Shown: positions 14,080 to 56,948 of the stretch, one piece after another
How the letters are laid out: every line of letters starts with the position of its first letter
Position numbering within the stretch: position 1 is the stretch's first letter
NCBI GenBank assembly: GCA_041617155.1
Contig: JBFJPL010000005.1
Coordinates: 2,564 to 66,563 of the forward strand
From: Kiloniellales bacterium
Lineage (GTDB): Bacteria > Pseudomonadota > Alphaproteobacteria > Kiloniellales > JAKSDN01
DNA: 64,000 nt
Direction: 5' to 3'
Made by a program: the position numbers and the translations under genes
Notes under the pieces: generated by a model
The model's input: the letters and a program-made list of their open reading frames with translations, nothing else
Told to the model about the DNA's origin: nothing
Databases searched by the model: none

Positions 14080-14347
14080 CCCAAAGATCAGGCAAAAGTG
14101 CCACCTTAGAACCAAGATCGGCCCCAATTGTCAAACCCGACTGCCCGCTTGACCGCACGCCTTCGAAGGTCCCACTCGGCTCGTGAGACCGGACAGCCGG
14201 CCGGTCGGCCACCGCCACCGAAAGTAGCGTATTTTGCACTTATGCGACTTAATCGTTAAGAGAAAACACACCTTCCGATTGCTAATCATACGCAGCGACG
14301 CTGAGCCCGCCACGGTTGCAATGCCGATCACTTGGAAGGACCGCTCG

Positions 14348-38940: not shown

Positions 38941-39156
38941 GGGTTCCGGGTCGCTTAAGGATCGGCATAGGATCGTCGGCGAGAGGGACAAGGCCTCCCG
39001 GGGTTCGCCGATTAGCGCCTTTGTGGCCCCGAGGCAACCTTTTTCCGCTCGGGAATAGTCACCGTGACATGCCGATGTAGCCTTGACGGTCCGAGCCTTT
39101 CGCGGGATTTCTATAGCGCTAGTCGGCCTCGCGATCAGACCTGGGGAGCAACAGCC

Positions 39157-40359
39157 ATGGCAAGGGCCCGCCCGACCGCATCGGACGGAGGCGACGAGGC
39201 AAGTGCGGCAATCTGGCGGCAGGGATTCCGGCCTTTCTTCCTGGGCGCGGCCTTGTGGTCGGCGGCGGCACTGGCGCTTTGGATCCCGGCCCTGACCCAC
39301 GGTCTGGTCCTGCCCAGCGGTTTCGGCGCGGCGGCCTGGCACGCCCACGAAATGCTGTTCGGTTTCGCCGCCGCGGCGATCGCCGGCTTCCTCTTGACGG
39401 CGATCCCGAACTGGACCGGCCGCCTGCCGATCCAGGGCACCCGGCTCGCCTTTCTGTTCACCCTGTGGGCCGCTGGCCGCATCGCCGTCGCCACCTCGTC
39501 GCTGGTCGGCGAGTGGCTGGCCGCGACAGTGGACGTCGGCTTTCTCGCGACCCTCTGCGCCATGGTTCTGCGCGAGATCCTGGCCGGCCGGAACTGGCGC
39601 AATCTGCCGATGGCTGGCGTGCTGGCCGTGCTCGCCCTGGCCAATCTCACAACCCATCTGGAGCCGCTCGGCCTCGCGGACACCAGCGACCTGGGCCAGC
39701 GCCTGACGATTGCCACCGTCGCGTTCCTCATCACCTTGATCGGCGGCCGGATCGTGCCGAGCTTCACCCGCAATTGGCTGAACAAGCGCAGCGAAACCGC
39801 GTTGCCGAGGACTTTCGGCCGGCTCGACCGCGCGACCGTGGCGGTCACGGCCTTGACCGGCCTTGGCTGGACCCTGCTGCCCGAGTCGGCGTTGACCGGC
39901 GTCCTGGCGCTTGTGACCGCCGCCGCCCAAGGTCTACGCCTTTCCGGCTGGCGCGGCCACAAGACCGGCGCCGAGCCTTTGGTCTGGGTGCTCCATCTTG
40001 GCTATGCCTGGCTGCCGATCGGCTTCGCGCTACTAGGTGTCGCGATCCTGACCGATCTGCTGCTGCCAAGCGCCGCCTTCCACGCCCTGACGGCAGGGGC
40101 CATGGGAACCATGATCCTGGCGGTCATGACGCGCGCCACCTTGGGCCACACCGGCCGGGCGCTGACCGCCGGTCCGGCGACGCTCGCCATCTACGCCCTG
40201 GTCACGCTCGCGGCCCTGCTTCGCCTGCTCGCGCCGCTCTTCGGCGGCGCGGAACTGCCGGTCATGGCCGTGGCCGGCCTGTCGTGGATCGCCGCCTTCG
40301 GTCTTTTCGCCACGGCCTATGGTCCTCTCCTCATTGGTGCCGAGCACCGCAGCGATTAG
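39157..40359 (+). CDS. nnrS: NnrS family haem/copper membrane protein
   Basis: The start is trimmed to ATG 39157. It reads GFRPFFLGAALW...AWHAHEMLFGF...LTAIPNWTG, and 12 hydrophobic segments are visible. Confidence 0.85.
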   Translation: MARARPTASDGGDEASAAIWRQGFRPFFLGAALWSAAALALWIPALTHGLVLPSGFGAAAWHAHEMLFGFAAAAIAGFLLTAIPNWTGRLPIQGTRLAFLFTLWAAGRIAVATSSLVGEWLAATVDVGFLATLCAMVLREILAGRNWRNLPMAGVLAVLALANLTTHLEPLGLADTSDLGQRLTIATVAFLITLIGGRIVPSFTRNWLNKRSETALPRTFGRLDRATVAVTALTGLGWTLLPESALTGVLALVTAAAQGLRLSGWRGHKTGAEPLVWVLHLGYAWLPIGFALLGVAILTDLLLPSAAFHALTAGAMGTMILAVMTRATLGHTGRALTAGPATLAIYALVTLAALLRLLAPLFGGAELPVMAVAGLSWIAAFGLFATAYGPLLIGAEHRSD

Positions 40360-40564
40360 GGCTCCTACGCACAAACGCGGCTCAAGCCGCGGCGCCTCGC
40401 AATTTCCCTTTGGCGGGGGACCCGGATAGGCCAGCCAAGCCTACGCATGGCACGGGTGTGCCAAATGCGGACAACGGAAATGGCCTATCGACCTGCCCCT
40501 TCGCCGGGCCGGGGCTAGACCCTGGGGCAATGACCGGTGCGATCGGAACCTCCCCGTCTCAGGG

Positions 40565-40948
40565 CTACTCGGTCAATACCTTGAGTATGTCGTAGCGGCT
40601 GACCTGCCCGACGAGCTTGCCGTCGCGGAGGACCGGGAAGCGACGGAAGTGGCTGTCGAGAAAATGCTGGGCCGCGCTCACCAGGTCCTGACCCGCGTCC
40701 AGGGTTGTCACGGGCGTGCTCATGAAATCGCGTACCGGTCCGCCCCAGTCGTCGTGATATCGTGTCGAAAAAACGATCTTCAGGCAGTCCTTCTTGGACA
40801 GCATGCCGACCAGGTCGCCGTCGGTGTCCACCACCGGTGCGCCGGAAATCCGTTTGTCGAGGAGAATCCGGATGGCCTCGTGAATGTTCATGTCCGGCGT
40901 GAAGGTAACCAGCCGAGTCGCCATGATGTCGGCGACGGTCCGAGTCAT
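40565..40948 (-). CDS. CBS-pair domain protein, last gene of the nqr-type operon
   Basis: 127 aa. The start ATG 40948 overlaps the nqrM stop (ATGA). Two CBS motifs are present (ISGAPVVD, RFPVLRDGKLVG). Confidence 0.75.
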   Translation of the reverse strand: MTRTVADIMATRLVTFTPDMNIHEAIRILLDKRISGAPVVDTDGDLVGMLSKKDCLKIVFSTRYHDDWGGPVRDFMSTPVTTLDAGQDLVSAAQHFLDSHFRRFPVLRDGKLVGQVSRYDILKVLTE

Positions 40949-41100
40949 CGCTCCTTCCCGGGCCGGCAGAGGGGACAGGCCTTGAGCACAGCGTCTCCGC
41001 CGCACGACCCCTTGAGCGGGCCGCGGCCGAGCAGGACCCCCGCGCCGAGTCCGAGGATCGCCAGCACGATCACCGCGAAGCTGAGCAAGAACAGCGTCAT
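40945..41100 (-). CDS. nqrM: (Na+)-NQR maturation protein NqrM-like, 51 aa (below ORF-track cutoff)
   Basis: Hand translation gives MTLFLLSFAVIVLAILGLGAGVLLGRGPLKGSCGGDAVLKACPLCRPGKER. It has one TM helix, then GSCGG and CxxC, which is the pattern I recall for NqrM/DUF539. ATGA overlaps occur at both ends. Confidence 0.65.
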   Translation of the reverse strand: MTLFLLSFAVIVLAILGLGAGVLLGRGPLKGSCGGDAVLKACPLCRPGKER

Positions 41101-42059
41101 GAAGCGCCTCCCACCGCGAATCCGTTGACGTCCACTTCCTCCAGTCCGCCCGGGCGGCGCATCAGGAACAGCGCGCTGGCGTCGCGAGCCTTGAGCAGCG
41201 GGCGGGCGGCTTCCGGCCCCAGCACCATGGCGGCCGTTGCCAGACCGTCCGCAATCAGCCCCGTCGCGGCCAACACGCTCACCGAGGCGACCCCATTGTT
41301 TACCGGCGTCCGGGTACGCGGGTCCAGAACATGACCATAGCGCCGACTACCAACGGCATAGCCCTGCGCGCCGTCGCCCGACGTCGCCAAGGCGCGCCTG
41401 TCTGCTTCGACGATTCGCTGAAGCATGGTCGATCCCGGCCGTTCGATACCGACACGCCAGGGCCGTCCCGATGGGTGGCGGCCCCGGGCCGCGACCTCGC
41501 CGCCCAGTTCGACCAGGAAATCGAGCCCGTCGAGCGCCTGCACGATCTCGTCCAGCGCGTGTCCCTTGGCGATGCCGCAAAGGTCGAGGCTCAACCCGGG
41601 GCACGCCGTTCTCAGCACATCACCGACGATGCTCAGATCGCGATACCGGCCGCTCGGGCGGGCAGGCGAAATGGCGGGCGGCCCGAAGCCGTAGCGCCTG
41701 CCCAGCGGCGCCGTGGTCGGGTCGAAGGCGCCGTCGCTGTCCCGGGCCAGCTCCAGCGCCGCGCGCGCAACGAGACTTGTCTCGCGCGACACAAAGGTGC
41801 AGCCGGCGGCGTTGAAGCGGGCCAATTCGGAGCCGGAGCGATAGGGCGACATGAGGGCATCAATGCGCGCCACGACCACTTCCAGCCGGGCCCGCGCCCG
41901 GGCCGCCTCGCGCGTGTCGGGCAGCACGAGCCGCCACGCCGAGCCGAAGGCGGGGCCCGTGTGGACGCGCACTTCGGCCGCGCGTGCCGCGGCGGGCAAG
42001 ACGTTCAGCAACGCCGCGCCGCCGGCTATTCGCAGAAGCTCCCTTCGCGTGATCGTCAT
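41097..42059 (-). CDS. apbE: FAD:protein FMN transferase (ApbE family), Tat signal
   Basis: 320 aa. It has an RRELLRIAGGAALL signal, GIAKG, and HVLDPRTRTP motifs. It abuts the nqrF stop. Confidence 0.85.
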   Translation of the reverse strand: MTITRRELLRIAGGAALLNVLPAAARAAEVRVHTGPAFGSAWRLVLPDTREAARARARLEVVVARIDALMSPYRSGSELARFNAAGCTFVSRETSLVARAALELARDSDGAFDPTTAPLGRRYGFGPPAISPARPSGRYRDLSIVGDVLRTACPGLSLDLCGIAKGHALDEIVQALDGLDFLVELGGEVAARGRHPSGRPWRVGIERPGSTMLQRIVEADRRALATSGDGAQGYAVGSRRYGHVLDPRTRTPVNNGVASVSVLAATGLIADGLATAAMVLGPEAARPLLKARDASALFLMRRPGGLEEVDVNGFAVGGAS

Positions 42060-43277
42060 TCAGCCTCCGAAATCGTCGTACAGGATATTCTCGCGCGGGA
42101 CGTCCAGCGTATCCAGCAGGGCGCGTGCCGCCTCGATCATGAGGGGCGGGCCGCACAGATAGTATTCGCACGCCGCCGGGTCGGGATGCGCCTTCAAATG
42201 GTTGCGGTAGACGACGTCATGGATGAACCCCGTCTCACCGTCCCACGAGTCGCCGGGCGCGGGGTCGGACAGCGCCACATGCCAGGAAAAATTCGCGTGT
42301 TCCCGCGCCAGCCGCTCCATATCGTCGGCGTAGTAGAGATCGATCAACGCGCGCGCGCCATACCAAAAGCTGATCCTGCGCGACGTCCTTTTGTATTCGA
42401 GCTGGTCGAACACATGCGCGCGCAGCGGCACCATGCCGACGCCGCCACCGATCAGGACGATCTCGCGGTCCGTCTCCATGACGAAGAAGTCGCCGAACGG
42501 TCCCGACACCGTGACCGCGTCGCCGACCTCGAGACCGAACAGGTAGGACGACACCACCCCGGGCGGCGCGTCCGGCCTGCTGGCGGGCGGCAGGGCGAGG
42601 CGGATGTTGAGCAGCAGCGCGTTGGTCTCCCCGGGGTGGTTGGCCAGCGAATACGCCCGGGCAACGGGGGCCTTGCACCGGGCCGTGAGTCTTCTAAGGC
42701 CCAAACGCGTCCAGGCATCTTCGTGCGCGGGGTCCACGGCGATCTCGGCGAACGGCAGGGTGAAGCGCGGCGCGGTGACCTCCACGTATGATCCGGCCCG
42801 GAAACTCCTGGCCTGCCCCTCGGGCAGGGCCAGCACGATTTCCTTGATCAGCGGCGCGAGGGATCGAGTCCGGCTGACGGTGCATGACCAGGTTTCCGCG
42901 ACCAGCAGGTCGGCGGCCACGGTGACCGCGAGGTCGTCGCGCACCACCACTTGGCAGGCGAGGCGGACGCCGTTCGCGATGTCGACTTCGCCTAGCGTGG
43001 CCCGCTCGATCGGCAGAACGTCCCCGCCACCGGTTACGGTCACCCGGCACAAACCACAGGTGCCCGCCCCGCCGCAGCTTGTGGGCAGATGCACGCCGCC
43101 ATGTTCCAGTGCCGCCAGCAGTTTTTGTCCGAGGTCGGCGTCCAGGACACGCTCGCCGTTCACGGTGATGTGCGCGAGGCCCCCGGGCACCAGCACGGCC
43201 CGGGCGACCAATACGACGAAGGCCAGCACCATGATCAGTCCCGTGAACACCGAACTGCCAAGAAGGATCTCCGTCAT
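42060..43277 (-). CDS. nqrF: NADH:quinone reductase (Nqr-type) subunit F
   Basis: The start is trimmed to ATG 43277. It has an N-terminal TM helix, the 2Fe-2S motif SCGGAGTCGLC...LACQ, the FAD motif RAYSLAN, and an NAD-binding GGGVGM region. Confidence 0.9.
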   Translation of the reverse strand: MTEILLGSSVFTGLIMVLAFVVLVARAVLVPGGLAHITVNGERVLDADLGQKLLAALEHGGVHLPTSCGGAGTCGLCRVTVTGGGDVLPIERATLGEVDIANGVRLACQVVVRDDLAVTVAADLLVAETWSCTVSRTRSLAPLIKEIVLALPEGQARSFRAGSYVEVTAPRFTLPFAEIAVDPAHEDAWTRLGLRRLTARCKAPVARAYSLANHPGETNALLLNIRLALPPASRPDAPPGVVSSYLFGLEVGDAVTVSGPFGDFFVMETDREIVLIGGGVGMVPLRAHVFDQLEYKRTSRRISFWYGARALIDLYYADDMERLAREHANFSWHVALSDPAPGDSWDGETGFIHDVVYRNHLKAHPDPAACEYYLCGPPLMIEAARALLDTLDVPRENILYDDFGG

Positions 43278-43284
43278 CGTCGCC

Positions 43285-43887
43285 TCATCCGAACTCCAGC
43301 CCGCCGAAAACGGCAAACCCCATCGACATGAAACCGGTCAGGATGAACGCGAGCCCGAGGCCGCGCAGCCCGTCCGGCACGAGAGTCTCGTCGATCCGCT
43401 CGCGCAGGGCGGCGAGCGCCCATACGGCCAGCGCCCACCCCAGCCCGGAACCCAAGCCGTAGATCACGCTCTCGGAGAACTCGTAGCGGCGCTCGACCAT
43501 GAACAGGCTGGCGCCGAGGATGGCGCAGTTGACGGTGATCAGCGGCAGATAGATTCCCAGCGAGCGGTAGAGCCGGGGGAAGTGGCGATCGAGGACCATC
43601 TCGAGGATCTGCACTGTGGCCGCGATGACGCCGATCGAGGCGATCAGCACCAGGAAGCTCAGATCGACCTCGCCCAGCCCCAGCCACGTCAGCGCGCCGG
43701 GCCCGAGCAGCCAGGTGAAAAGGAGGTTGTTGACAGGGACGGTGATCGTTTCGACCACGATCATGGCGAGGCCCAGCCCGAACGCGGTCTCCAGATGACG
43801 GGAGACCGCGAGGAACGTGCACATTCCAAGGAAGTAGGCGAGCGCCAAATTGTCGGTGAATACCGATCGGACCAGTAGTTCGGTCAT
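43285..43887 (-). CDS. nqrE: Nqr-type subunit E
   Basis: 200 aa, starting [29 protein letters not shown]. The conserved Cys residues in GMCTFL and VNCAIL are present. ATGA overlap with nqrD. Confidence 0.9.
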
Positions 43888-44534
43888 CGCGGCACCTCGC
43901 CGCCCTGTTCTCCCGGGGCCGGCTCGGCCTGTTCCGGCCGAATGGTACGTATCGCCCACACCAGCAGTCCGAGCAGGAAGAACGCGCTCGGCGGCAGCGC
44001 CATCAATCCGAGCGGCGTGAACCAGCCGCCATCCGCGGCGGCCGGCAAAATTGTGACGCCCAACAGCGTTCCCGCACCGAAAAGCTCGCGCACGATGCCG
44101 ACCGTAACCAGGATCAGGGCATAGCCGAGGCCGTTGCCGAGACCGTCGAGCAGGCTCGCGCCGGGGGGATTCTTCATGGCGAAACCTTCCGCGCGGGCGA
44201 GCACGATGCAGTTAGTGACGATGAGGCCGACAAACACGCTGAGACGCTTGCTCATCGCGAACATGTAGGCTTGCAGCATTTGGTCCACGACGATGACCAG
44301 CGAGGCAATGATCGTGATCTGCACGATGAGCCGGATCGAGCGGGGAACATGGTTGCGAATCAGGCTGATCAGGCCGTTGGAGAGGGTGAGCACGAAGATC
44401 AGCGCGGCGCTCATCACCAGGGCGGTGGCCAGCGACGTGGTCACCGCAAGCGCAGAGCAGATCCCGAGCACCTGAAGCGTCACCGGGTTGGCGACGAGAA
44501 TGGGGTCGACCAGGGTGCGGGTGCGATCGCTCAT
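43884..44534 (-). CDS. nqrD: Nqr-type subunit D
   Basis: This is the last 216 aa of track ORF 43884..45245, reading [12 protein letters not shown] and [17 protein letters not shown] overlap with nqrC. Confidence 0.9.
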
Positions 44535-45271
44535 CGCCCCGCCTCCGACTTGAGGCGATCGAGATACGGGCCGTAGCCGTCGGGGCCGAGCCAGAAACGC
44601 AGTAGGTTGGTGACGCCGGTGCCGGTGCGGGTCGCACCGGAGATGCCGTCGACCTCGTGCACGCCGGTGCCGGCGCCCTTGACCACCCCGATGCGGATCA
44701 CGCCGTCGGCATCGGCCACCTGCCTGCCCGGCCAAAGGGCCTGCCACGCATCTTCCTCGATGCGCGCGCCCATGCCGGGGGTCTCGTCCTGTTCGTAAAA
44801 GGTCAGCGCGGCGACGGTGTTCAAATCGGCCTTCAGGGCAAGATACCCCTTGAGCGTCGATTGATAGCCGGTTCCGCGCACCGGCAGGACCACCAACCTC
44901 AACGCGCCCTCCTCGCGCAGTTCGAAGACGGTGGCCACGTTCTCGCGGCTGCCCAGCCCCGCACGGTCGCGGTCGACCGGCAGCTCGGTGCTCGTGCCCG
45001 GGTCGCGGTCCACATCGGCGCCGGAGGCGAGATCCACCAGACGCATCTCCGGAACGCCCGCGCCCAGGATTTCCAACATCCCCAGCATGCGCGCCACCTT
45101 GTCCGCCTGCCGGTTGGCGTCCTGCAGCGGCCTCAGCGTCACCGCCGTGGCCGAAACCACCAGCGAGCAAACCAGGGCAACCAGGAGCGCGACGCCGACG
45201 GTCTTCGCCGTGCTGTCGTTGGGCAGGGCAAGGAAGCCCCGCCACCAGACGAGCGGATTGGCACTAGCCAT
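44531..45271 (-). CDS. nqrC: Nqr-type subunit C (FMN-binding)
   Basis: The start is trimmed to ATG 45271. It has one N-terminal TM helix and the FMN phosphoester site ISGATRTG. Confidence 0.85.
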
Positions 45272-46049
45272 GGCGGGGCCTCCAGGCGAGCGCCCGGTCC
45301 AGAAGCGGCGCGAACAGCCCGCCCAGCAGAGCCGCGAACACCACGCCGTCGGGCTGGTCGGGATTGGCGAGGCGGATCGCGACAATCAGCGCGCCGACCA
45401 GCATGCCCAGCAGCCAACGGGCACCACTGCCGGCGATCGCGCCCTCGGGCGCCGCAGCGAGGAACAGGATACCGGCTGAGAAGGCACCGAGGCCGGGATG
45501 CTGCCACCACACGGGGTCGCCCATCAACAAACCCGCCGCCGCAGCGCCGGCCACGGCGCCCGCGGCGACCTGCCAGGCGAGCGAGCCTCTCAACATCAGG
45601 ATAACGGCCCCGGGCAGGCAGGACAGGGCGAACACGTAGTCGGGCGACAGCGCGAGGATGCCTTGCGCCTCGAACCCGCCCTCGGGGAAGGAAAAGATGG
45701 CGAATGCCAGGCCGATCAGCGCCGGCGGCAGTATCGCCCTGCCGCCGAAGATCTCGCGCCCGAAGACGGCGCCGAAGCTGAGCGCGAGCACGGCCCCGCC
45801 CCAGCCGACCGGCCCTGGCAGCATCACGACGAACAACACGGCGAAGGCAGGCAGCCCGGAGCCGAGCGGGCGTCCCGTCCGGCGCGCGAACAGGGCGGCC
45901 CAGGCATAGGTGATGCCGAGCGCCAGAGCGAGCAGAAGCAGCCGCTGCATCGCCACCTCCGTGCCGTCGCCAAACAGCCGCACGAGGAAGGGCAGCGTCA
46001 GCGCCAGCAGCCTGAGGCGGTCATCACTGTCCGGATCGGTCATGGTCAT
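45264..46049 (-). CDS. nqrB: Truncated NqrB/RnfD-family membrane subunit (261 aa, no SGAT FMN site)
   Basis: The start is at ATG 46049 (MTMTDPD). Blocks FGAVFGREIFGG and IRLANPDQPDGVVFAALLGGLFAPLLD align by eye with NqrB. There is an 8-nt overlap with nqrC. Confidence 0.75.
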   Translation of the reverse strand: MTMTDPDSDDRLRLLALTLPFLVRLFGDGTEVAMQRLLLLALALGITYAWAALFARRTGRPLGSGLPAFAVLFVVMLPGPVGWGGAVLALSFGAVFGREIFGGRAILPPALIGLAFAIFSFPEGGFEAQGILALSPDYVFALSCLPGAVILMLRGSLAWQVAAGAVAGAAAAGLLMGDPVWWQHPGLGAFSAGILFLAAAPEGAIAGSGARWLLGMLVGALIVAIRLANPDQPDGVVFAALLGGLFAPLLDRALAWRPRHG

Positions 46050-46423
46050 CGCGTGCCAACTTAAGGTCGGGATGAAACCCTGACAACGGTTGTGCCTCAA
46101 TCGCCTGGGCTTGTCTCGGGGTCGCGGGCAGTCTGCGGTCGCCTTGACGAACAACGCCTGGTCATTCGACGGCTCAGTGGACAGCTTCCTGGGGCAGCCC
46201 ATTCCAACGACAACCTGATCGGTGAGTGGCACGTCGTCCGCGCCGATTGCCACGGCCATTTGCGAAGCTTCGAGCAATGATCGTTGAACAGTACCGCCGG
46301 GCGGAGGCTTTGGCTGTGCCTTCGCCATCGGGAACCAGCCGATCAATGAATCGGTTCGGGGAAACAATGGCTCAAAGTCGGACATCGGCCTCGGAGAGTC
46401 CGAAGCTGCGGTTGAACTGACGT

Positions 46424-46459
46424 GGGGCAAACATGGCAAAAATGGCAAAAATGGCAAAA
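46424..46459. repeat. Tandem 9-mer atggcaaaa, three perfect copies plus one degenerate
   Basis: ggggcaaac (46424-46432) is followed by atggcaaaa at 46433, 46442 and 46451. It lies in the divergent nqrB/cytochrome intergenic region. Confidence 0.9.
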
Positions 46460-46558
46460 GCAGCCATGATTGGACGTCAGCGTATTCTGCTTTCGACTGC
46501 GGGCTCATGGCGCACTATGATAATTCCATCGACGAACTAGAATGCCGCACCATTCGTT

Positions 46559-47833
46559 ATGGGAATGCTCATGGACACTTTTTCGTGTGGCGCGCGTGCC
46601 TTCCAAATCCGGAACGACGTGCCGGAGCTGACGGTGAGCAAGCTGTATGACCTCTTCGCCATTGCCAACTCATGGAGACATCTCGGCGGGCTCGTTTCGA
46701 TTGCATTTGTTGTTTTGCTGTTGGCCGGCTTAAGTTCGCCGCTTGCCGCGGCGGGTCTCAATGGCGACAAGGCCTACACCGAAGGGCCACAAGTGTGCGG
46801 CCGTTGCCACACGGAAGCTTTGGAGCAGTGGCTCGCTCACGGCCACAGCCGGAAGCTCGCCATCGGCGGGCCGGCGCTCAAGGCGCTCGACGGCAAATTT
46901 GGCCTTTTCGGGAATGCGCGAGACGGCGGATTCCGCCTCCCGGACCACGACAAAGATGCCTATAACTGGGACAACGTGGCGCTGATCATCGGCGCAAGCA
47001 AGCGATGGAAGACGCGATTCCTGGCCAAAGACGGCTACATCATCACCAAGGGCGGGAACAACCAATATAACTGGGCGGACGGTTCTTGGGTCGACTACCA
47101 CAAGGACGAACAGAAAAAGTATAGCTGTGGCAGCTGCCATACCACCGGCTATCGGGAGGGCGGCAGCGCTTTCGGCGCAAAGCGAATTCCTGGCACGACC
47201 GCCGGTCCCATGCCCGGCATCGCGGGGGACTGGGCCCAGTTCAACATCACCTGCGAGGCCTGCCACGGACCGGGCGCGGCTCACGCCGCGAAGCCGAGCA
47301 AAGTCAACATAATAGTGGACAATTCGGCGCAGTCATGCGGCACGTGCCACATCCGCGGATCGGACCCGAACACCATCATCGCGGAGGGCGGCTTCATCCG
47401 CCATCACGAACAGTATCCCGAGTTCGCCAACAGCCCTCACAAGGACCTTGCCTGCACGACCTGCCACCAACCCCACGACAGCCGCTCGCAGGGCATGAAG
47501 GTGAGCGCCGCGAACACCACGGTCTGCGACACCTGCCATGGCGCGCAGAAGGAGCTATTCGCCGGCAGTCCGATGCAAAAGGCCGGTGTGACCTGCGTGG
47601 ACTGCCACATGGCAAAGGTCACGAAGTCCGCGGTTGCAGTGGGGCCCTATGAGGGCGACGTGCGCACCCACGTCATGCGGATCAATCCCGCCGCCGATTA
47701 CGTGATGTTTACACCAGACGGCAAAGCGGCCAAGAATGCTATCAGCTTGGAATTTGCCTGTTTTCGGTGCCATGCCGCGGCCAGCAAGGCGGAGTTCGCC
47801 AAGATCAAGGACTTCCATGCCATCGGCAAATGA
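46559..47833 (+). CDS. Octahaem c-type cytochrome, periplasmic or membrane-anchored
   Basis: Eight CxxCH motifs are present: CGRCH, CGSCH, CEACH, CGTCH, CTTCH, CDTCH, CVDCH, CFRCH. The N-terminus has a hydrophobic segment, LVSIAFVVLLLAGLSSPLAAAG. The start is uncertain (ATG 46559 or GTG 46634). Confidence 0.85.
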   Translation: MGMLMDTFSCGARAFQIRNDVPELTVSKLYDLFAIANSWRHLGGLVSIAFVVLLLAGLSSPLAAAGLNGDKAYTEGPQVCGRCHTEALEQWLAHGHSRKLAIGGPALKALDGKFGLFGNARDGGFRLPDHDKDAYNWDNVALIIGASKRWKTRFLAKDGYIITKGGNNQYNWADGSWVDYHKDEQKKYSCGSCHTTGYREGGSAFGAKRIPGTTAGPMPGIAGDWAQFNITCEACHGPGAAHAAKPSKVNIIVDNSAQSCGTCHIRGSDPNTIIAEGGFIRHHEQYPEFANSPHKDLACTTCHQPHDSRSQGMKVSAANTTVCDTCHGAQKELFAGSPMQKAGVTCVDCHMAKVTKSAVAVGPYEGDVRTHVMRINPAADYVMFTPDGKAAKNAISLEFACFRCHAAASKAEFAKIKDFHAIGK

Positions 47834-48393
47834 CCCGCGGCGGCAATGCATGATGACGCGGCGGTCCTTGGGGCCCCAGCTGCCGGGCAGGCTGCAGTCC
47901 GCCGTGGCCCGGTCGTCGATCAGCGCCTGGTTCATCTCGGTCGCGAAGGAGCCCGGGCCGATGCCGTTGACCTGGAGGCCCATGGGCGCCCAGTCGGCGC
48001 ACATGCCCTTGGTCAGCATCTTGACCGCACCCTTGGCCGCGGTGTAGGGCGCGATGGTCGGCCGGCCGACCTCGCTCATCAGCGAGCAGATGTTGATGAT
48101 CTTGCCGGCCTTGCGCGCGATCATTCGCCGCGCCACCAGGAACACGCCGGTGAGATAGGTCTCGATCACCGCCCGCCAGTCGGCCTCGGGAAACTCGGCC
48201 AAGGGTTTGCGCACCTGGATCCCGGCGTGGTTGACGAGAATGTCGCTCGGCCCCTGCCCCTCCTCGATCTCGACCACGCCGGCCTCGACCGCGGCCCCGT
48301 CGGTGACGTCGAAGGCGACCCGCTCAGCCGCCACCTCGGCCTCGCACAAATCGGCCACGGCCCGCCCCGGCTTGGCCTCGTCACGCCCGTTCA
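47834..48393 (-). pseudogene. Short-chain dehydrogenase/reductase remnant, truncated at both ends
   Basis: The middle of track ORF 47555..48511 reads ILVNHAGI...INICSLMSEVGRPTIAPYTAAKGAVKMLTK...VNGIGPG (SDR NAG and YxxxK motifs). There is no N-terminal GxxxGxG Rossmann segment and no normal C-terminus. Confidence 0.6.
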
Positions 48394-48914
48394 GCACCAC
48401 CGCCGCCACGCCGACCATGGCACCCGCGGCGACCTGCCATGGCAGCAAGCCGCGCAACATCAGGACCGCCGCCCCGGGCAGGCAGGACATCGCGAACAGG
48501 GGATCGGGCAACAGCGCGAGAATACCGCGCGCCTCGAACTCGACCTCGGGGAAGGGGAAGATGGCGGCCGATCAGCGCCGGGGGCAGTATGGCCCTGCCG
48601 ACGAAGATCTCGCGCCCGAAGACGGCACCGAAGCTCAGCGCGAGAACGGCGCCGCTCCAGGCAACCGGCCCAGGCAGCAACGAGACGAAGGTTATGGCAA
48701 AGGCAGGTAGCCCGGGGCCCGGCGGACGCCCAGCCCGACGCGCGAACAGGCCGGCCCAGGCATAGGCGATGCCGAGCGCCAGGCCGAGCAGCAGCAACCG
48801 CTGAACCGCCGCTTCCGTGCTTTCGCCATAAAGCCGCACGGCCAGAGGCGGCGCCAGCGCCAGCACCCTGAGGACGTCATCACGGTCGGGATCGGCCATG
48901 GTCGTCGCGCGCAT
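48394..48914 (-). pseudogene. Frameshifted partial copy of the short nqrB
   Basis: MRATTMADPDRDDVLRVLALAPPLAVRLYGE...FGAVFGREIFVGRAILPPALIG parallels 45264..46049. An 8-nt gap near 48566 relative to the intact copy breaks the frame. Homology resumes in another frame (PDPLFAMSCLPGAAVLMLRG) and ends at the SDR remnant. Confidence 0.7.
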
Positions 48915-49049
48915 CCCGCGTTAGCGTACGGCCGGGATAACGCACTGACAACGGTCGTGCGTCGGTCGGCTGGGCCGGGGCCGCAGGCCGTCCAAGGTCG
49001 CCTTGGCGGGCTATGTCCGGTCGTTGGACGGCCCCGTGCACAGCTTCCT

Positions 49050-49265
49050 GCCGCGGGCCCTGCTTCGCTTGCCCGCGCCGCTCTTCGGCGGCGCGGAACT
49101 GCCGGTCATGGCCATGGCCGGCCTGTCGTGGATCGCCGCCTTCGGTCTTTTCGCCACGGCCTATGGCCCGTTCCTGACCGGCGCCGCCCGTCGGGTCGAC
49201 TAACGCCGGTGGTCACATAAGACGCCTGAGCCGCGGGCTCCCTCGTTGCAGTTCTGGCGGGTGAT
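49050..49265 (+). pseudogene. Orphan copy of the nnrS 3-prime end plus its downstream sequence
   Basis: Track ORF 49003..49203 ends LLRLPAPLFGGAELPVMAMAGLSWIAAFGLFATAYGPFLTGAARRVD, compared with the nnrS C-terminus LLRLLAPLFGGAELPVMAVAGLSWIAAFGLFATAYGPLLIGAEHRSD. DNA similarity continues past the stop (gagccgcgg...). Confidence 0.65.
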
Positions 49266-49321
49266 CCGGGGAAGCCATGAACGGACTTGGAGTTCTGTCA
49301 GCGCAAAGACGCGCGATGTCA

Positions 49322-50224
49322 TTAGCTGTCGAGGAGGTGCTCGACGAACCAGTCGCGGGCGACGCCGCTTGCCTCATCGAAGTCCTTCACATAGGCGTCG
49401 AAATGTCCGCCTTTGAGCAACACGAGCTTCTTGGGCTCGAGCGCCCGTTCGTAGGCGGCGATCGCCTCGTCGGCCACGGTCAGATGATCCCCGGCTGCGA
49501 CCACCATGAGCAGCGGTGTCGGGCTGACATATTCGATGTAGGCGCCCGGTTCGTACTCCATGAACATCTCGACCGAGCGAAGCGTCACCTCGTTGCGCCA
49601 CGCCGGCGCCCGCAGTTCGGCCGTTTCGGTAAACCATTCGAAGGAGTCCGGGGTCGGCAGCGCACAGGGCACGTTGGGATCGTCCGACACCACGGCGATC
49701 ATCTGTGGAGCCTGCCCGGCAAATCGTGCCTGGCGATCGGTATTGAACATGCCCTGGACCGCCGCGATGAGATCCGCGCGAATGAGGCGCCGCGCGTTTC
49801 TGTGGCCGCTGATCAGCGGCACCTGCGACACGACGCACTTTACCCGGCGGTCGATCGCGCCGATCACCAGAACATGCGCGCCGCTGTAACTCGAGCCCCA
49901 GATGCCGATCCGATCGTCATCCACTTCGGCGAGACCGCTCGCATAGGTAATGGCATCCCGGTAGTCGCGGATCTGCTGCCAAGGGTCGATCTCCTGGCGC
50001 GGTTCGCCATCGCTGGCACCGAAGTTTCTGTTGTCGAAGACCAAGGCGCCGAGGCCCGAGGCGGCATAAACCTCCGCGTAGGTGTCGAGATAGTTCTCTT
50101 TCAGAGCCGAAAATCCGTGGGCCATGACCACGGTCGGAACCGACCCGCGCACGTCGTCGGGTAGATACAGCCAGCCCCGCAACGTCACGCCATCCTCGGA
50201 CTTAAACTCAATATCCCTTCGCAT
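49322..50224 (-). CDS. Alpha/beta-fold hydrolase
   Basis: 300 aa with the nucleophile elbow GSSYSG. The N-terminal pattern EFKSEDGVTLRGWLYLP is typical of dienelactone/CocE-like hydrolases. Confidence 0.8.
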   Translation of the reverse strand: MRRDIEFKSEDGVTLRGWLYLPDDVRGSVPTVVMAHGFSALKENYLDTYAEVYAASGLGALVFDNRNFGASDGEPRQEIDPWQQIRDYRDAITYASGLAEVDDDRIGIWGSSYSGAHVLVIGAIDRRVKCVVSQVPLISGHRNARRLIRADLIAAVQGMFNTDRQARFAGQAPQMIAVVSDDPNVPCALPTPDSFEWFTETAELRAPAWRNEVTLRSVEMFMEYEPGAYIEYVSPTPLLMVVAAGDHLTVADEAIAAYERALEPKKLVLLKGGHFDAYVKDFDEASGVARDWFVEHLLDS

Positions 50225-53597: not shown

Positions 53598-56500
53598 TCA
53601 TGCCAGCTCGTCGAGCAGCGCCTTGGCTTCCTTGAGGTCCGGGGTGCCGAAGCCCTCGGTGAACCAGCCGTAGACTGGCGCAAGAAGATCGTGAGCGTCA
53701 TGGCGTTTGCCCTGCTCGGCCCAGTGCCGTGCAAGGCTGGTCGCGGCGCGCAGTTCCCAGGATTTGGCGTCTTGCGCCCGCGCGACTTGGATCGCTCTCT
53801 GCAAACTTACCGCTGCGGAATCGGCATCGCCCGATTGCAGTAGGGCTTGTGCGCGGAGCTGATGAATCCTCGATTCCCACCACCGCTCGCCGGTCTGCTC
53901 CCCGATATCTAGAGCTTGGGCCAGCGTTTCGAGCGCTTCAGCACGCCGCTGCGAGTGCAAGAGACTCTCGGCGAAAAGACATGTGAAGGGTTGAAGCCAC
54001 GTACGCGCTCCAATCCGGTTCCAGTTCTCAAGCCCGGTACGAATTCGCTCAAGCCCATCCTCCGCCTGCCCCGTCAGCGCAAGCGCCCAGCCGCTAATGA
54101 TCAGGGCGCTCGCCTCGGTCTGCACCAATTTTTGCTCCTCGCTTAGCTGCAGCAGTTTCTCGGCTGTCGACAGCGCCGCAGCCTTGTCGCCGCGCGCCGC
54201 ATGGGCCGCGCCAAGGAACCAAAGCGCGAAGGCAAGCGTGGGCGCGTGACCGAGGCGCCGTGCGATTTGCAGGGCGTCCGTGTCATGTCGGTGCGCCCGG
54301 TCAGGGAAACCGAGTGCCCAGACGACGCCGGCGCCGAGAGCGTGGGCGCAGACCGCCGGGTCATGCCCTAAGTACACAAACGCGTGGTGCTTGTGCTGTT
54401 CATAGTCATAAAGAGCCAAACCCTTCTCGATGTGTTCGTTCGACCTCACGAACGCACCCCGGTACATCGGAATTGGCCACGCGGCATGGTGGGACTGTAA
54501 CAGCAAGTCGCGGTTAGAAGTGGTCTTAGCCACCTGAAACAGCTCTTGGGTAACCTGGTCGGCCAGATCAAACCGGCCACGAGTTGCATGAAACAGCCAC
54601 ATTCCCACGAGCGGCGGCACTAAATCGGCGGACCTTTCGAGCAGACCTGCCAGCGTTCTCGCCCGTTCGTATGCTGTCCCTACCTCTGTCGCCGCCCATC
54701 CTTTGACCAGCATCAGGGCAGGCCCAAGGTGAGTTAGCACCCTAAGCTCGTTCGTGTTGCGTTCGCGGCCTTCGGGCTGAATGTGAATCAGGTCGAGTGC
54801 CTTCTGAAAGTGCTGAATGGCCTCGATATTGGCGGCCCGTCGCACCGCCTCCTGACCGGCGAGTTGCCGATACTTGATCGCCGGCTCTATCAAGCGGGCT
54901 TCGGTGTAGTGATGGGCGAGCAGTTCGGGCGCCGCCCCTGCCTCGAAAGAAATCGCTTCGAGCGCCTCTGCTACTCGGGCATGCAATTGCTGGCGTTTGG
55001 ATTTAAGGAGCGAATGGTAGGCGGTGTCCTGGACCAGAGCGTGCTTGAAGATATACGAGCTTCCGGAACGCTTGCGGCGGCGGTAGACCAACTCCGACTC
55101 GACCAGCCGGTCGAGCGCAGCGTCTAGCTCCGGCTTGGCGCGGTCGGCCACGGCAGCCAGTAGCTCGTGCGAGAACTCGCGCCCGATGACCGCGCCAATC
55201 TGGGCTGCCTCCTTGACCGGACCGAGGCGATCGAGCCGCGCCATGAGAGAGTCGTGCAGGGTTGAAGGGATCGCCAACGGCGGCAACGGACCGGCCAGTT
55301 CGTAATGGTCGCCGGCATCGGTGAGTAGGCCCAATTCGAGTGTCGTCTTGGTCAGCTCCTCGACGAACAGCGGCACACCGTCGGTCTTGGCCAGGATCTG
55401 ATCGAGCACTTCCGCGGGCAGCGGCTTGCCGCTCGTGAGGCGCTGCACCACGGCCGCGCCCTGCCGCCAGCTCAGCCGGTTGAGCGAAAGCTGAGTGACA
55501 CAGGCATGGCCAATCCAAGGTGGTTGAAAGTCTGGTCGGAAGGTCAGGATCAGCAGCACCGGCAGGCGCACTAGGCACTCGACAACCAATGCCAAAAACT
55601 CCTGTGTGCTAGGGTCAATCCAGTGCACGTCCTCGAATATCATCAGGACCGGTTCGTGCGCCGCCAATCCCTCGAGCTGCTCGACCAGCGCTTCGAGCGT
55701 ACGTTGTTTCTGCCGCTGCGGCGTCATCTTGAGCGCCGGGAAGCGTTCAGCGGTCGAGATACCCAGGGCCTGGGCAAGCAAAAGCGTGGCTTCGCCCACC
55801 TCTGCGGTACCCTGGCCGAGCACAGCTTCTAGAAGCTCGAACTTGACCTCGACGGTGTCGTCATGGCCAAAGCCTGCGGCTCTCTGGAGCTGGTCGAGTA
55901 TTGGGTAAAGTGCCGTGTTGACGTGAAACGGCGAACAGAAGTAGCGCAGGTTGACGTACGAATCATCGGCGAGCTGCGCTCTCAAGCTCTCGACGATGCG
56001 CGATTTGCCGATTCCGGGCTCGCCAGAGAGCAACACGACCTGTCCCTCTCCGTCGCGCGCCTGGCGCCAGCGCGAGAGCAGGAAACGCAACTCTTCGTCG
56101 CGGCCGATCAGAGGTGTCAACTCTGCCCCGTGGCGCGCCTCGAAGCGGCCCTCCATACGACTCTCGCCGGTAACCCGCCAGGCTTGGATCGGTTCAGCAA
56201 ACCCCTTGAGTTCGCGTGCACCTAGATCGGCCAGATCGAACAACTCACCGAGTAGATGACGCGTGCCCGGCCCAATCACCACACTGTTGGGTTCGGCCAA
56301 GGTCTGAAGGCGCGCAGCCAAGCTCGGCGTCTCGCCGACCACCGCCTCTTCTTGTGCCCCACCTTCGCCGACTATGTCGCCGACGATCACTTGACCGGTC
56401 GCGATACCAACCCGCGCCGCCAAATGCTTGCCCGTTGGCGTCATCAACTTTGCGACCGCCTCGGCAAGCTCCAGTCCCGCTCGCACCGCGCGTTCGGCAT

Positions 56501-56948
56501 CGTCCTCATGTGCCTGGGGATAGCCGAAGTAGGCGAGCACGCCATCGCCCATGTAGTTGGCGACATGGCCCTCGAAGCGGGTGATTATGCCGGCGCAGGC
56601 GCTCTGGTAGGCACGAATCACCTCGCGCATGTCCTCCGGATCGAGCTGCCCCGACAGCGCGGTCGACCCAACCAGATCGCAGAACATGATCGTGAGTTGG
56701 CGCCGCTCAGCTTCCGCCTTGTCAGGGTGGCCATCGGAGACAGTGCTTTCCACTGCAGGTGGCGCCTGATCGTCGAGGTCGGCAATCGCTGCCAGCAAGA
56801 CTCGGCGGTGCCCTAGTGAAATGCCTAAGTCTCTGAGGTCTTGATCGGTCAAGTGAGGGAGGGCCCGCAGATCAACGTCGTTCTCGGTGAAAACGTTCGC
56901 ATACTGGCCAAGACCCAGATGTTCGAGCCATCGTATTACTTCACGCAT
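53598..56948 (-). CDS. SAM domain / class III nucleotidyl cyclase / STAND-type ATPase / TPR-like repeat protein
   Basis: 1116 aa. It has an N-terminal SAM-like segment (LEHLGLGQYANVF...LTDQDLRDLGI), a cyclase core (LTIMFCDLVGSTAL...YMGDGVLAYFG), a P-loop (LSGEPGIGKSRIV), and long helical repeats. Confidence 0.85.
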   Translation of the reverse strand: MREVIRWLEHLGLGQYANVFTENDVDLRALPHLTDQDLRDLGISLGHRRVLLAAIADLDDQAPPAVESTVSDGHPDKAEAERRQLTIMFCDLVGSTALSGQLDPEDMREVIRAYQSACAGIITRFEGHVANYMGDGVLAYFGYPQAHEDDAERAVRAGLELAEAVAKLMTPTGKHLAARVGIATGQVIVGDIVGEGGAQEEAVVGETPSLAARLQTLAEPNSVVIGPGTRHLLGELFDLADLGARELKGFAEPIQAWRVTGESRMEGRFEARHGAELTPLIGRDEELRFLLSRWRQARDGEGQVVLLSGEPGIGKSRIVESLRAQLADDSYVNLRYFCSPFHVNTALYPILDQLQRAAGFGHDDTVEVKFELLEAVLGQGTAEVGEATLLLAQALGISTAERFPALKMTPQRQKQRTLEALVEQLEGLAAHEPVLMIFEDVHWIDPSTQEFLALVVECLVRLPVLLILTFRPDFQPPWIGHACVTQLSLNRLSWRQGAAVVQRLTSGKPLPAEVLDQILAKTDGVPLFVEELTKTTLELGLLTDAGDHYELAGPLPPLAIPSTLHDSLMARLDRLGPVKEAAQIGAVIGREFSHELLAAVADRAKPELDAALDRLVESELVYRRRKRSGSSYIFKHALVQDTAYHSLLKSKRQQLHARVAEALEAISFEAGAAPELLAHHYTEARLIEPAIKYRQLAGQEAVRRAANIEAIQHFQKALDLIHIQPEGRERNTNELRVLTHLGPALMLVKGWAATEVGTAYERARTLAGLLERSADLVPPLVGMWLFHATRGRFDLADQVTQELFQVAKTTSNRDLLLQSHHAAWPIPMYRGAFVRSNEHIEKGLALYDYEQHKHHAFVYLGHDPAVCAHALGAGVVWALGFPDRAHRHDTDALQIARRLGHAPTLAFALWFLGAAHAARGDKAAALSTAEKLLQLSEEQKLVQTEASALIISGWALALTGQAEDGLERIRTGLENWNRIGARTWLQPFTCLFAESLLHSQRRAEALETLAQALDIGEQTGERWWESRIHQLRAQALLQSGDADSAAVSLQRAIQVARAQDAKSWELRAATSLARHWAEQGKRHDAHDLLAPVYGWFTEGFGTPDLKEAKALLDELA

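Follow-up and report, generated by a model that had tools for sequence, protein, structure and literature searches.

What becomes of the electron path of an NQR-type complex when NqrB is reduced to a minimal membrane subunit and no NqrA is encoded beside it? The question is raised by an operon in the window, as we call the whole 64-kb stretch of DNA that was analyzed, in which the genes are tightly packed in the order nqrB'-nqrC-nqrD-nqrE-nqrF-apbE-nqrM-like-CBS and which is kept in about 25 species-level genomes. Its first gene, nqrB' (45264..46049, minus strand), encodes a 261-amino-acid membrane subunit of the NqrB/RnfD fold, hereafter B'.

The nqrB' Reading Frame

The reading frame of nqrB' starts at ATG 46049, ends with TAG at 45264–45266, and shares 8 nt with the start of nqrC (ATGGCTAG). 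Upstream of the ATG, the frame contains no stop as far as 46508, and the NCBI gene call for a protein identical to B' is 331 amino acids long; both would fit a full-length nqrB with a mis-called start. However, a longer N-terminus was rejected, because the 153 codons before the ATG lack both conservation and any Pfam match, and because of the lengths of the homologues and the upstream stops in most relatives. The homologue search gave 174 matches, with more than 170 database clusters of about 259–264 amino acids, a length found in 90 of the 120 homologues among the matches listed. At 15 of 25 related loci, the position equivalent to M1 is preceded within 38 codons by an in-frame stop, and in two of these the distance is one codon. 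The initial annotation had taken the short N-terminus to be genuine, and the agreement of family lengths, together with the stops close upstream in relatives, bears this out.

The same rival explanation, in its other form, treats nqrB' as a decaying gene in a defunct operon, and a degenerate second copy close by (48384..49050, minus strand) might be cited in its favor. This copy comprises the 5' part of nqrB' and its leader, is frameshifted, ends after about residue 176, and is fused to an SDR fragment; it is present also in two independent assemblies. Its ATG 48914 corresponds base for base to ATG 46049, and the in-frame TAA noted previously lies at 48921–48923. The leader or promoter-proximal region of nqrB' (46050..46191, minus strand), duplicated with the gene fragment, is 72–78% identical to 48915–49050. 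That this leader might contain an RNA element, for instance a riboswitch, was considered and discarded, since an Rfam scan of 45900–49400 gave only a chance snoRNA match, and a scan for promoters and terminators returned background levels only.

It could further be argued for decay that B' is the least constrained subunit of the operon, with a dN/dS of 0.29 compared to 0.12–0.25 for NqrC to NqrF. Nevertheless, a value of 0.29 itself speaks against a relic, as do the number of species that keep the operon, the number of protein clusters, and the confident fold prediction described below. In the family alignment (69 sequences, 53–82% identity), 16 columns are invariant and about 60 more are nearly invariant. 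Cys144 and W159 are invariant, and W182 is near-invariant; Cys144 lies where the helix that follows a deleted loop reaches the periplasm. The conservation of these three residues indicates that B' is under constraint, and they could belong to a new cofactor or quinone site. We therefore regard an artifact or a relic as very improbable: nqrB' is a true derivative of nqrB that purifying selection maintains.

Transmembrane Core and Cofactor Sites of B'

B' passes the cut-off of the Pfam family PF03116 (NQR2_RnfD_RnfE; 82.7 vs. 27.7 bits), but stays below the equivalog cut-offs for NqrB (81.2 vs. 349.9 bits for TIGR01937; 89.6 vs. 414 for NF003756) and for RnfD (46.9 vs. 207 bits for TIGR01946). 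The B' family profile gives 128 bits to NqrB compared to 48 to RnfD, and is thus nearer to NqrB in sequence. The name given to relatives by the NCBI pipeline is "RnfABCDGE type electron transport complex subunit D." An AF2 monomer model of B' (pLDDT 89, pTM 0.87) matched V. cholerae NqrB chains 8a1v_B and 8acw_B in Foldseek with a TMq of 0.83–0.84, and RnfD chain 7zc6_D with a TMq of 0.83 and a TMt of 0.72.

In HMMER alignments, residues 39–123 of B' correspond to residues 132–218 of V. cholerae NqrB, and residues 141–258 to 277–404. Positions 23–132 and 173–290 of the PF03116 core are covered, 133–172 are absent, and the N-terminus of B' falls some 8 residues into the Pfam core and is not extended. 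The two blocks that the initial annotation had named as kept, the FG...FGG helix and the C-terminal helix, are both found in B' (SFGAVFGREIFGG and IRLANPDQPDGVVFAALLGGLFAPLLD). Its description of the N-terminus, by contrast, needs revision. Ahead of the FG...FGG helix, about 90 residues remain, which are predicted to form three helices and align with Pfam core positions 23–132, and the phrase that B' lacks the N-terminal third is too strong, as the core common to RnfD and NqrB starts within its first 15 or so residues. Judged from alignment and model, this common transmembrane core is whole in B', and the N-terminal part absent relative to V. cholerae is the NqrB-specific extension, with the core helices kept. 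V. cholerae NqrB (PDB 7XK3; 8A1V chain B) is 415 amino acids long compared to 261 for B', while the transmembrane fold is common to both. B' resembles RnfD (PDB 7ZC6 chain D; 9ERI chain D) in N-terminal length and core, neither having the NqrB-type extension. [quoted passage not shown]

For the cofactor sites, B' residues were mapped onto V. cholerae NqrB by sequence alignment, and 69 family members were scored. The V. cholerae loop 219–276, which bears the SGAT threonine T236, corresponds to only about 17 residues in B', and the motif [ST]GA[TS] is absent from B' and from all 120 listed homologues. The V. cholerae stretch "FGGTGRNFLNP" reads "FGG--RAILPP" in B', and "ATDP" reads "AAAP." The earlier observations that B' has no FMN-attachment threonine, and that the GTG(R/K)N stretch and the ATDP block are altered, are thereby confirmed, and the loop that bears this threonine has been lost as well. 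N200, N203, and D346 of V. cholerae NqrB are riboflavin ligands (PMC9293633), and roles have been described for T162, G198, N200, and D346 at the riboflavin and for G141 in quinone contact (PMC9293633; PMC10643135). Within the family (n = 69), T162 is replaced by F, G198 is deleted, N200 is replaced by A or P, N203 by P, and D346 by A, S, or V; G141 is replaced by Tyr in 51 of the 69 members, and E144 by A. Also absent from B' is the N-terminal stretch of NqrB, with the quinone/inhibitor helices AH-I and AH-II and the reach toward NqrA. The gate residue F342 is kept as F196 and D397 as D251. Based on this mapping, B' appears to be without any known flavin or quinone site of canonical NqrB. The initial annotation had suspected the loss of the branch from FMN(B) through riboflavin to quinone, and this loss is very probable, given that the riboflavin ligands and the quinone-contact residue G141 are replaced family-wide as well.

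Partner Subunits and the Path of Electrons

The remaining NQR subunits of the operon are highly similar to those of canonical NQR. NqrC (246 amino acids; 44531..45271, minus strand; TIGR01938, 163 bits, cut-off 144) comprises an N-terminal membrane anchor and a periplasmic FMN_bind domain, and its flavinylation site is intact, with "GISGATRT" aligned to V. cholerae "GLSGATLT." NqrD (216 amino acids; 43884..44534, minus strand; NF006777, 306 bits, cut-off 235) has both Cys ligands of the membrane [2Fe-2S] center, including the one in LGICSALAV, aligned to the V. cholerae Cys positions, and NqrE (200 amino acids; 43285..43887, minus strand; TIGR01940, 280 bits, cut-off 247.6) has both Cys ligands and the acidic residue of QILEM. 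NqrF (405 amino acids; 42060..43277, minus strand) consists of a membrane anchor, a 2Fe-2S ferredoxin domain, and an FAD/NADH domain, and matches TIGR01941 over residues 1–405 (455.8 bits, cut-off 295). All four proteins thus score above NCBIfam equivalog cut-offs, with their cofactor residues kept.

Downstream, apbE (41097..42059, minus strand; PF02424, 206.5 bits) encodes an FAD:protein FMN transferase with a Tat-like leader; it is present in the operon of most relatives and presumably flavinylates NqrC only. The next ORF (51 amino acids; 40945..41100, minus strand) has a GSCGG...C..C motif of a putative maturation protein and only a weak match to Pfam NqrM (E = 0.065), but was kept as NqrM-like because of this Cys motif and of its position, which is the same in 25 or more loci. 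The last gene, which overlaps it by 4 nt (40565..40948, minus strand; PF00571, 108 bits), encodes a stand-alone CBS-pair protein of 127 amino acids. Compared to the Na+-NQR of V. cholerae, the order B-C-D-E-F-apbE-nqrM is common to both, whereas the window operon has no NqrA and has the additional CBS-pair gene. Compared to RNF, neither rnfB nor rnfC is present, whereas NqrF is.

We propose, with about even confidence, that the five-subunit complex NqrB'CDEF is a one-way exporter of NADH electrons to a periplasmic acceptor and not to quinone. In this scheme, electrons would pass from NADH through the FAD and the 2Fe-2S center of NqrF and the [2Fe-2S] center of NqrD/E to the covalent FMN of NqrC at the periplasmic face. 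With the return path through NqrB gone, this FMN would hand them to a periplasmic acceptor instead of a membrane quinone on the cytoplasmic side. B' may be the structural partner on which NqrC and NqrD/E dock, and it might also have remained a route for ions.

One-way flow of this kind has been proposed for two-subunit NQR/RNF-like systems, which amount to half an NQR with a non-flavinylated NqrB-like subunit (PMC8238504; PMC11334425). In these systems, found mainly in Actinobacteria and CPR, the proposed electron flow is one-way, with NAD(P)H as the source and a flavinylated FMN_bind protein outside the cytosol as the recipient, and the NqrB-like subunit lacks the threonine as B' does (Méheust et al., 2021, eLife; Huang et al., 2024, mSystems). 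However, their NqrB-like domain is fused to a C-terminal NAD-binding domain (PF00175) and has an NqrC-like protein as its only partner, whereas B' has no PF00175 domain and nqrD, nqrE, and nqrF are separate full genes. The two-subunit systems use the NqrB half, without NqrD/E and the ferredoxin domain of NqrF; NqrB'CDEF is their reciprocal, as it has retained the NqrF-NqrD/E-NqrC half and has a disabled NqrB half.

Alternatively, the complex may still be an NADH:quinone oxidoreductase. The FMN of NqrC would then pass electrons straight to a quinone at a site of recent origin, which could be, for example, at the periplasmic face of B' close to the pocket that FMN has vacated, and the complex would still feed the respiratory chain, by a shorter route. 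The completeness of the NqrC to NqrF set would be expected of such an enzyme, the conserved Cys144, W159, and W182 could belong to the new site, most family loci have no cytochrome adjoining the operon, and JGI pipelines label the B' family as an NQR subunit. Yet all mapped quinone and riboflavin determinants of canonical NqrB are gone, a Tyr in place of G141 would be a steric block to quinone according to Hau et al., and no quinone site is known beside FMN(C) in the solved NQR or RNF structures. On balance, we consider this alternative unlikely, but a serious competitor to export.

NqrA and the CBS-Pair Protein

NqrA was sought by tblastn with four NqrA sequences, which found none in the 64-kb window (best E = 0.14) and none in any of 23 or more B'-family loci, where the upstream genes are unrelated to it. 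An NqrA hidden nearby or degraded can thus be dismissed for the window and these loci, and its absence, as first reported for this locus, extends to the family loci. The initial annotation had further linked the loss of NqrA to that of the NqrB N-terminus and FMN. This coupling does not hold, because at seven loci of sister clades an equally short (260–273 amino acids), loop-less NqrB lies directly downstream of a full NqrA. These strains include the cultured Citreicella sp. C3M06, Hoeflea sp. IMCC20628, and Puniceibacterium confluentis. A short, FMN-less NqrB beside NqrA means that the N-terminal and FMN losses are separable from the loss of NqrA, which they presumably preceded.

The operons of these Rhodobacterales and Rhizobiales have the same C-D-E-F-apbE-(nqrM)-CBS layout, with a multiheme cytochrome c at the 5' end, and their NqrB, which has no FMN loop or N-terminal extension, is 29–38% identical to window B'. 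They differ in keeping NqrA and D346, and in a loop of 14 residues compared to 21 in B'. In the loci sampled, NqrA absence co-varies with loss of the riboflavin ligand D346, which is lost in 23 of 23 NqrA-less loci and in none of 11 NqrA-containing ones.

The CBS gene is the 3'-terminal gene in virtually all related operons, NqrA-containing ones included, and is the only universally conserved extra gene. It bears on a second alternative, in which B' binds a flavin non-covalently, or its pocket is visited by the mobile FMN of NqrC, and electrons return to an acceptor on the cytoplasmic side, possibly via the CBS protein in the place of NqrA. Huang et al. propose such sampling of a non-covalent site for the NqrB-like subunit without the threonine in two-subunit Nqr/Rnf-like systems, and the retention of F342 and D397 in B' would be consistent with it. 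However, the four riboflavin hydrogen-bonding positions are all apolar or deleted in B', and CBS pairs are regulatory nucleotide binders rather than redox proteins. Moreover, since the CBS protein also occurs in clades that keep NqrA, it is not a replacement for NqrA. We judge this alternative rather improbable; under the export model, the CBS protein would act as a regulator that senses nucleotides in the cytoplasm.

Candidate Periplasmic Acceptors

For the export model, the best candidate acceptor may be the multiheme cytochrome c encoded beside the operon. In the window, this is an octaheme c-type cytochrome (8 CXXCH motifs; 46559..47833, plus strand) with a signal/anchor sequence, whose gene is divergent from nqrB'. 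Multiheme cytochromes adjoin the operon in the window, at L024, L027, L031, and L032, and in 6 of 7 NqrA-containing short-B loci; at L027, L031, L032, L041, and L044, they are immediately upstream and co-directional. Some 18 of 23 NqrA-less loci, in contrast, have no cytochrome adjoining the operon. Further, homologues of the window octaheme cytochrome (54–69% identity, on long contigs) are encoded away from nqr genes in 4 of 4 cases, which makes the link optional. We therefore treat a multiheme cytochrome c as a candidate acceptor suggested by gene neighborhood, for which the evidence is mixed.

A comparison of the window octaheme cytochrome with the pentaheme one of the NqrA-containing clade gave no convincing homology. 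A search for a conserved upstream partner gene at 16 loci was likewise negative, the neighbors being mutually unrelated and only multiheme cytochromes recurring. These neighbors encode ABC permeases, an FAA hydrolase, an E2 acyltransferase, a radical SAM protein, a patatin, an acyl-CoA synthetase, Usp, an ion channel, TspO, EamA, and ectoine synthase.

Recurrent multiheme cytochromes could also be read as electron donors. In this third alternative, the complex would run in reverse: cation influx would drive the reduction of NAD+ via NqrC, NqrD/E, and NqrF by a low-potential periplasmic donor, e.g., a multiheme cytochrome that receives its electrons from H2, formate, or a donor outside the cell. 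RNF/NQR chemistry is reversible in principle (PMC12174285). However, inward electron transfer would have to overcome both the membrane potential and an uphill step in redox potential, for which one cation per electron is unlikely to be enough, and no hydrogenase or formate dehydrogenase genes were found in the neighborhoods examined. Reverse operation therefore seems quite improbable. Taking export as the preferred direction, we tentatively suggest that NqrB'CDEF is a quinone-independent, NQR-derived exporter that has a multiheme cytochrome c or another periplasmic redox protein as its partner and may move Na+ or H+ via NqrD/E.

Implications for NQR and RNF Complexes

In the literature searched, with most subscription-journal papers outside its coverage, we found no description of an NqrA-less NQR with a truncated, flavin-less NqrB, nor of NqrA-containing operons with a short NqrB. 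The cofactors of the RnfD/NqrB core have been described as strictly conserved (PMC12174285), and reviews place NqrB or NqrD/E at the center of the disputed Na+-pumping mechanism. Pipelines label proteins such as B' "RnfD" or "NqrB," and metabolic reconstructions would thus credit the organism with a Na+-NQR or RNF that is probably absent. Cultured marine Alphaproteobacteria (Hoeflea, Puniceibacterium, and Citreicella) carry the related form with NqrA, which makes the question accessible to experiment.

A widespread NQR that is under selection without the FMN, riboflavin, and quinone site of NqrB, and without NqrA, is a natural experiment. If our reading is correct, the related operons would form a series from canonical NQR through a loop without the threonine and a loop-less NqrB with NqrA to a loop-less NqrB without NqrA and riboflavin site. 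If a periplasmic protein is reduced in place of quinone, this would be a new route for NADH electrons across the inner membrane. If the variant still pumps ions, the flavins of NqrB would be dispensable for pumping, and this natural "NqrB-flavin knockout" would show which half of NQR/RNF translocates ions.

An eight-gene nqr operon without nqrA

The short NqrB/RnfD-fold protein B' is encoded by nqrB' (ATG 46049 to TAG 45264-45266, 261 amino acids), the first of eight closely packed genes on the minus strand, which continue with nqrC (45271-44531, overlapping nqrB' by 8 nt), nqrD (44534-43884), nqrE (43887-43285), nqrF (43277-42060), apbE (42059-41097), an NqrM-like ORF of 51 amino acids (41100-40945) and the gene for a stand-alone CBS-pair protein (40948-40565). 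NqrC, NqrD, NqrE and NqrF each passed the NCBI curated equivalog cut-offs; NqrC keeps its SGAT site, NqrF is full length, and NqrD and NqrE keep all four cysteines of the membrane [2Fe-2S] centre together with conserved acidic residues. B' scored 81-90 bits against the NqrB equivalog, below the cut-offs of 350-414, and 82.7 bits against Pfam PF03116, above the cut-off of 27.7. A search for NqrA homologues found none in the 64-kb window and none at the family's other loci, flanks of up to 10 kb included.

A full-length NnrS gene (39064-40359, Pfam 382 bits) converges on the operon end; NnrS is a haem-copper membrane protein of the NO-stress response. One related locus (L029) also has an NnrS homologue, some 5 kb upstream of its nqrB', and the association is otherwise not conserved. 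The remaining window genes are ordinary chromosomal housekeeping genes (ParC/GyrA-like, Era, signal peptidase, SpoT, DapA, CysNC, thiamine genes), and three further large genes, of signalling or surface type and with no relation to the NQR finding, encode a 1415-aa multi-PAS hybrid histidine kinase (9088-13335), a 1091-aa PKD-repeat/DUF7453 protein (14234-17509) and a 1116-aa SAM-adenylate cyclase-AAA-TPR protein (53598-56948).

The order B'-C-D-E-F-(apbE)-nqrM-like-CBS recurs in about 25 species-level genomes, with unrelated genes upstream between loci. The NqrA-less form is known from MAGs only, and their taxonomic labels, mostly Alphaproteobacteria, Rhodospirillales or Thalassospiraceae, are inconsistent. 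Near-identical operons (NqrE 80-92% identical) sit in MAGs labelled Alphaproteobacteria, Acidobacteria, Gemmatimonadota, Lysobacterales, Burkholderiales, Flavobacteriales and Pseudomonadales (loci L009-L033), which points to binning or label errors or to lateral transfer of the operon.

B' belongs to a selected family of short proteins

The initial annotation held that the N-terminus is genuinely short, and this is borne out. A word-index search found 174 relatives of B', and 90 of the 120 listed are 259-264 amino acids long. Of 25 related loci, 15 have an in-frame stop at most 38 codons upstream of the M1-equivalent (two of them just one codon upstream), so that no conserved N-terminal extension can exist; the 331-aa NCBI call for the identical protein is an over-extension. 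Across 69 members (53-82% identity), 16 positions never vary and about 60 hardly vary. Pairwise dN/dS over eight taxa was 0.29 for B', 0.25 for C, 0.20 for D, 0.18 for F and 0.12 for E; B' is thus under purifying selection, though the loosest of the five subunits. The short B' proteins are a real, selected family. One nqrB' homologue (L031, 5873-6667, in a MAG labelled Pseudomonadales) carries an in-frame stop (…LTCLPGAA*LLW…), for which sequencing error, pseudogene formation and recoding are all candidate explanations.

The degenerate second copy cited for the start codon also stands: its ATG 48914 matches ATG 46049 base for base in the alignment, and an in-frame TAA lies ahead of it. The copy belongs to a rearrangement scar (47555-49203), in which 48397-49050 repeats, at 78% identity, the 5' part of nqrB' plus 142 nt of leader (45533-46191). 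It is frameshifted, cut off after about residue 176 and joined on the 3' side to part of a short-chain dehydrogenase that has lost its N-terminus (Pfam adh_short positions 25-193). Next to it, 49056-49186 is a 92%-identical copy of the NnrS 3' end (40212-40342). This junction order is what a tandem duplication of about 40150-46190, followed by deletions, would leave, and the same scar is found in two other assemblies (L004 and L005).

FMN, riboflavin and quinone determinants of NqrB

HMMER alignments place B' 39-123 on residues 132-218 of V. cholerae NqrB (Vc) and B' 141-258 on Vc 277-404. In the Pfam core, B' 15-123 covers positions 23-132 and B' 139-254 positions 173-290, leaving only the FMN loop (positions 133-172) absent from the common RnfD/NqrB core. 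The periplasmic loop bearing the FMN threonine T236 shrinks from 58 residues in V. cholerae to about 17, and no FMN threonine motif is present: SGAT is absent from B', and [ST]GA[TS] from all 120 listed relatives. As originally read, the blocks SFGAVFGREIFGG and IRLANPDQPDG...LFAPLLD are retained, FGGTGRNFLNP is replaced by FGG--RAILPP, and ATDP by AAAP. AlphaFold2 gave a confident model from 69 family sequences (pLDDT 89, pTM 0.87), which matches V. cholerae NqrB chains at TMq 0.83-0.84 and RnfD at TMq 0.83, TMt 0.72. B' starts about where RnfD-type proteins do, as compared with a 314-aa Firmicute homologue. The proposed loss of an N-terminal third therefore holds for an NqrB-specific extension and an insertion, but not for the core helices, which are present.

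Functional residues were mapped by sequence, through an ungapped alignment of the 69 members, rather than by residue-level superposition. In the family, G141 is replaced by Y (51/69), E144 by A, T162 by F, N200 by A or P, N203 by P and D346 by A, S or V, and G198 is deleted, whereas F342 and D397 are kept. In V. cholerae NqrB, riboflavin binding needs N200, N203 and D346 (PMC9293633), and riboflavin is hydrogen-bonded by G198, N200, T162 and D346; the quinone and HQNO site comprises G141 and the N-terminal helices AH-I and AH-II, and any side chain at position 141 would block quinone (PMC10643135). Read with these established roles, the mapping indicates that the FMN, riboflavin and quinone determinants of NqrB are all lost together in B'.

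At L280 the family has a new Cys (C144 of B', codon 45618-45620), invariant in 69/69 sequences, at the start of the helix after the deleted FMN loop. It also occurs in L034, L038 and L039, is absent from the Rhodobacterales type, and might mark a novel ligand or redox site.

Loop-less NqrB occurs with and without NqrA

The initial annotation had coupled the loss of NqrA to that of the NqrB N-terminus and FMN. Seven loci of distant relatives argue against this: a Rhodospirillales MAG (L034), three Rhodobacter MAGs (L035, L036, L042), Citreicella sp. C3M06 (L041), Hoeflea sp. IMCC20628 (L043) and Puniceibacterium confluentis (L044) have a loop-less NqrB of 260-273 amino acids without the N-terminal extension, and yet a complete NqrA (Pfam NQRA_N, NQRA_2nd, NQRA_SLBB) directly upstream. 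Loss of the FMN loop and extension is therefore separable from loss of NqrA, and we infer that it came first. Two further loci, L038 and L039, keep the long loop, lack the threonine and have NqrA. Pipelines label the short NqrB proteins of the cultured strains 'RnfD'. Among the best 150 representatives in a full-library profile search, 45 were short and loop-less, and 41 of these keep D346. Within the loci sampled, NqrA absence coincides with D346 loss (no aspartate in 23/23 NqrA-less loci vs. loss in 0/11 NqrA-containing loci). The initial observation is thus confirmed, and its interpretation partly supported.

The CBS-pair protein (127-133 amino acids) is the most constant accessory of the short-NqrB clade, its gene ending all related operons (L001-L044) at the 3' side, also downstream where NqrA is kept, and so it is not an NqrA substitute. 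It resembles nucleotide-binding regulatory modules and is likely a nucleotide-sensing regulator of the complex. The canonical Vibrio nqr operon is not known to include such a gene.

A possible outward electron path

Sequence determinants are all present for NADH -> FAD -> 2Fe-2S (NqrF) -> [2Fe-2S] (NqrD/NqrE) -> FMN (NqrC), and all absent for FMN (NqrB) -> riboflavin -> quinone. Electrons may thus go no further than the NqrC FMN on the periplasmic side and exit to a periplasmic acceptor. B' would then act as a scaffold and docking partner, and possibly also as an ion path, given that it keeps F342 and D397. Outward transfer would itself be electrogenic without a return path; co-export of one cation would make the step roughly electroneutral, with a chemical rather than electrical gradient.

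A candidate acceptor is the octahaem cytochrome c encoded divergently from nqrB' in the window. Four related loci (L024, L027, L031 and L032) also have multihaem cytochrome genes next to the operon, co-directional and standing where nqrA would be in three of the four, and a pentahaem protein of about 360 amino acids adjoins nqrA in 6/7 NqrA-containing short-B loci. However, most NqrA-less loci have no adjoining cytochrome, clear homology between the window octahaem and the pentahaem type was not found, and none of four homologues of the window cytochrome on long contigs lies near nqr genes. With the evidence on a cytochrome acceptor so mixed, we regard a one-way exporter as evenly poised between right and wrong, and a specific cytochrome partner as less probable than that.

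Between the octahaem gene and the divergent nqrB' lies a tandem 9-mer, GGCAAAAAT (46426-46459, 3.8 copies, 96% match), which could be a regulator-binding array. Elsewhere, genes for large 11-haem cytochromes c (441-650 amino acids) follow the NQR-like operon within a few kb in L014 (17907-19859), L015 (8837-10759) and L036 (14424-15749), in the last directly after the CBS gene.

Na+-NQR is the closest known system, but B' departs from the NqrB equivalog in five tested defining features and the complex from six-subunit NQR in having no NqrA encoded at its loci. A 2025 review describes the core cofactors as strictly conserved (PMC12174285). In concept, B'CDEF comes nearest to the two-subunit 'NQR/RNF-like' system (Méheust et al. 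2021; Huang et al. 2024), which has an NqrB-like subunit without the threonine and was proposed to work one way (PMC8238504, PMC11334425); that system differs in architecture, however, and of the two halves of the path retains the one opposite to that in B'CDEF. No description of this NQR variant was found in the full-text literature searched, whose coverage leaves out most subscription journals. The NqrA-less short-B operon is of real bioenergetic interest as a naturally dissected NQR electron loop, and a close NqrA-containing relative is available in cultured strains.
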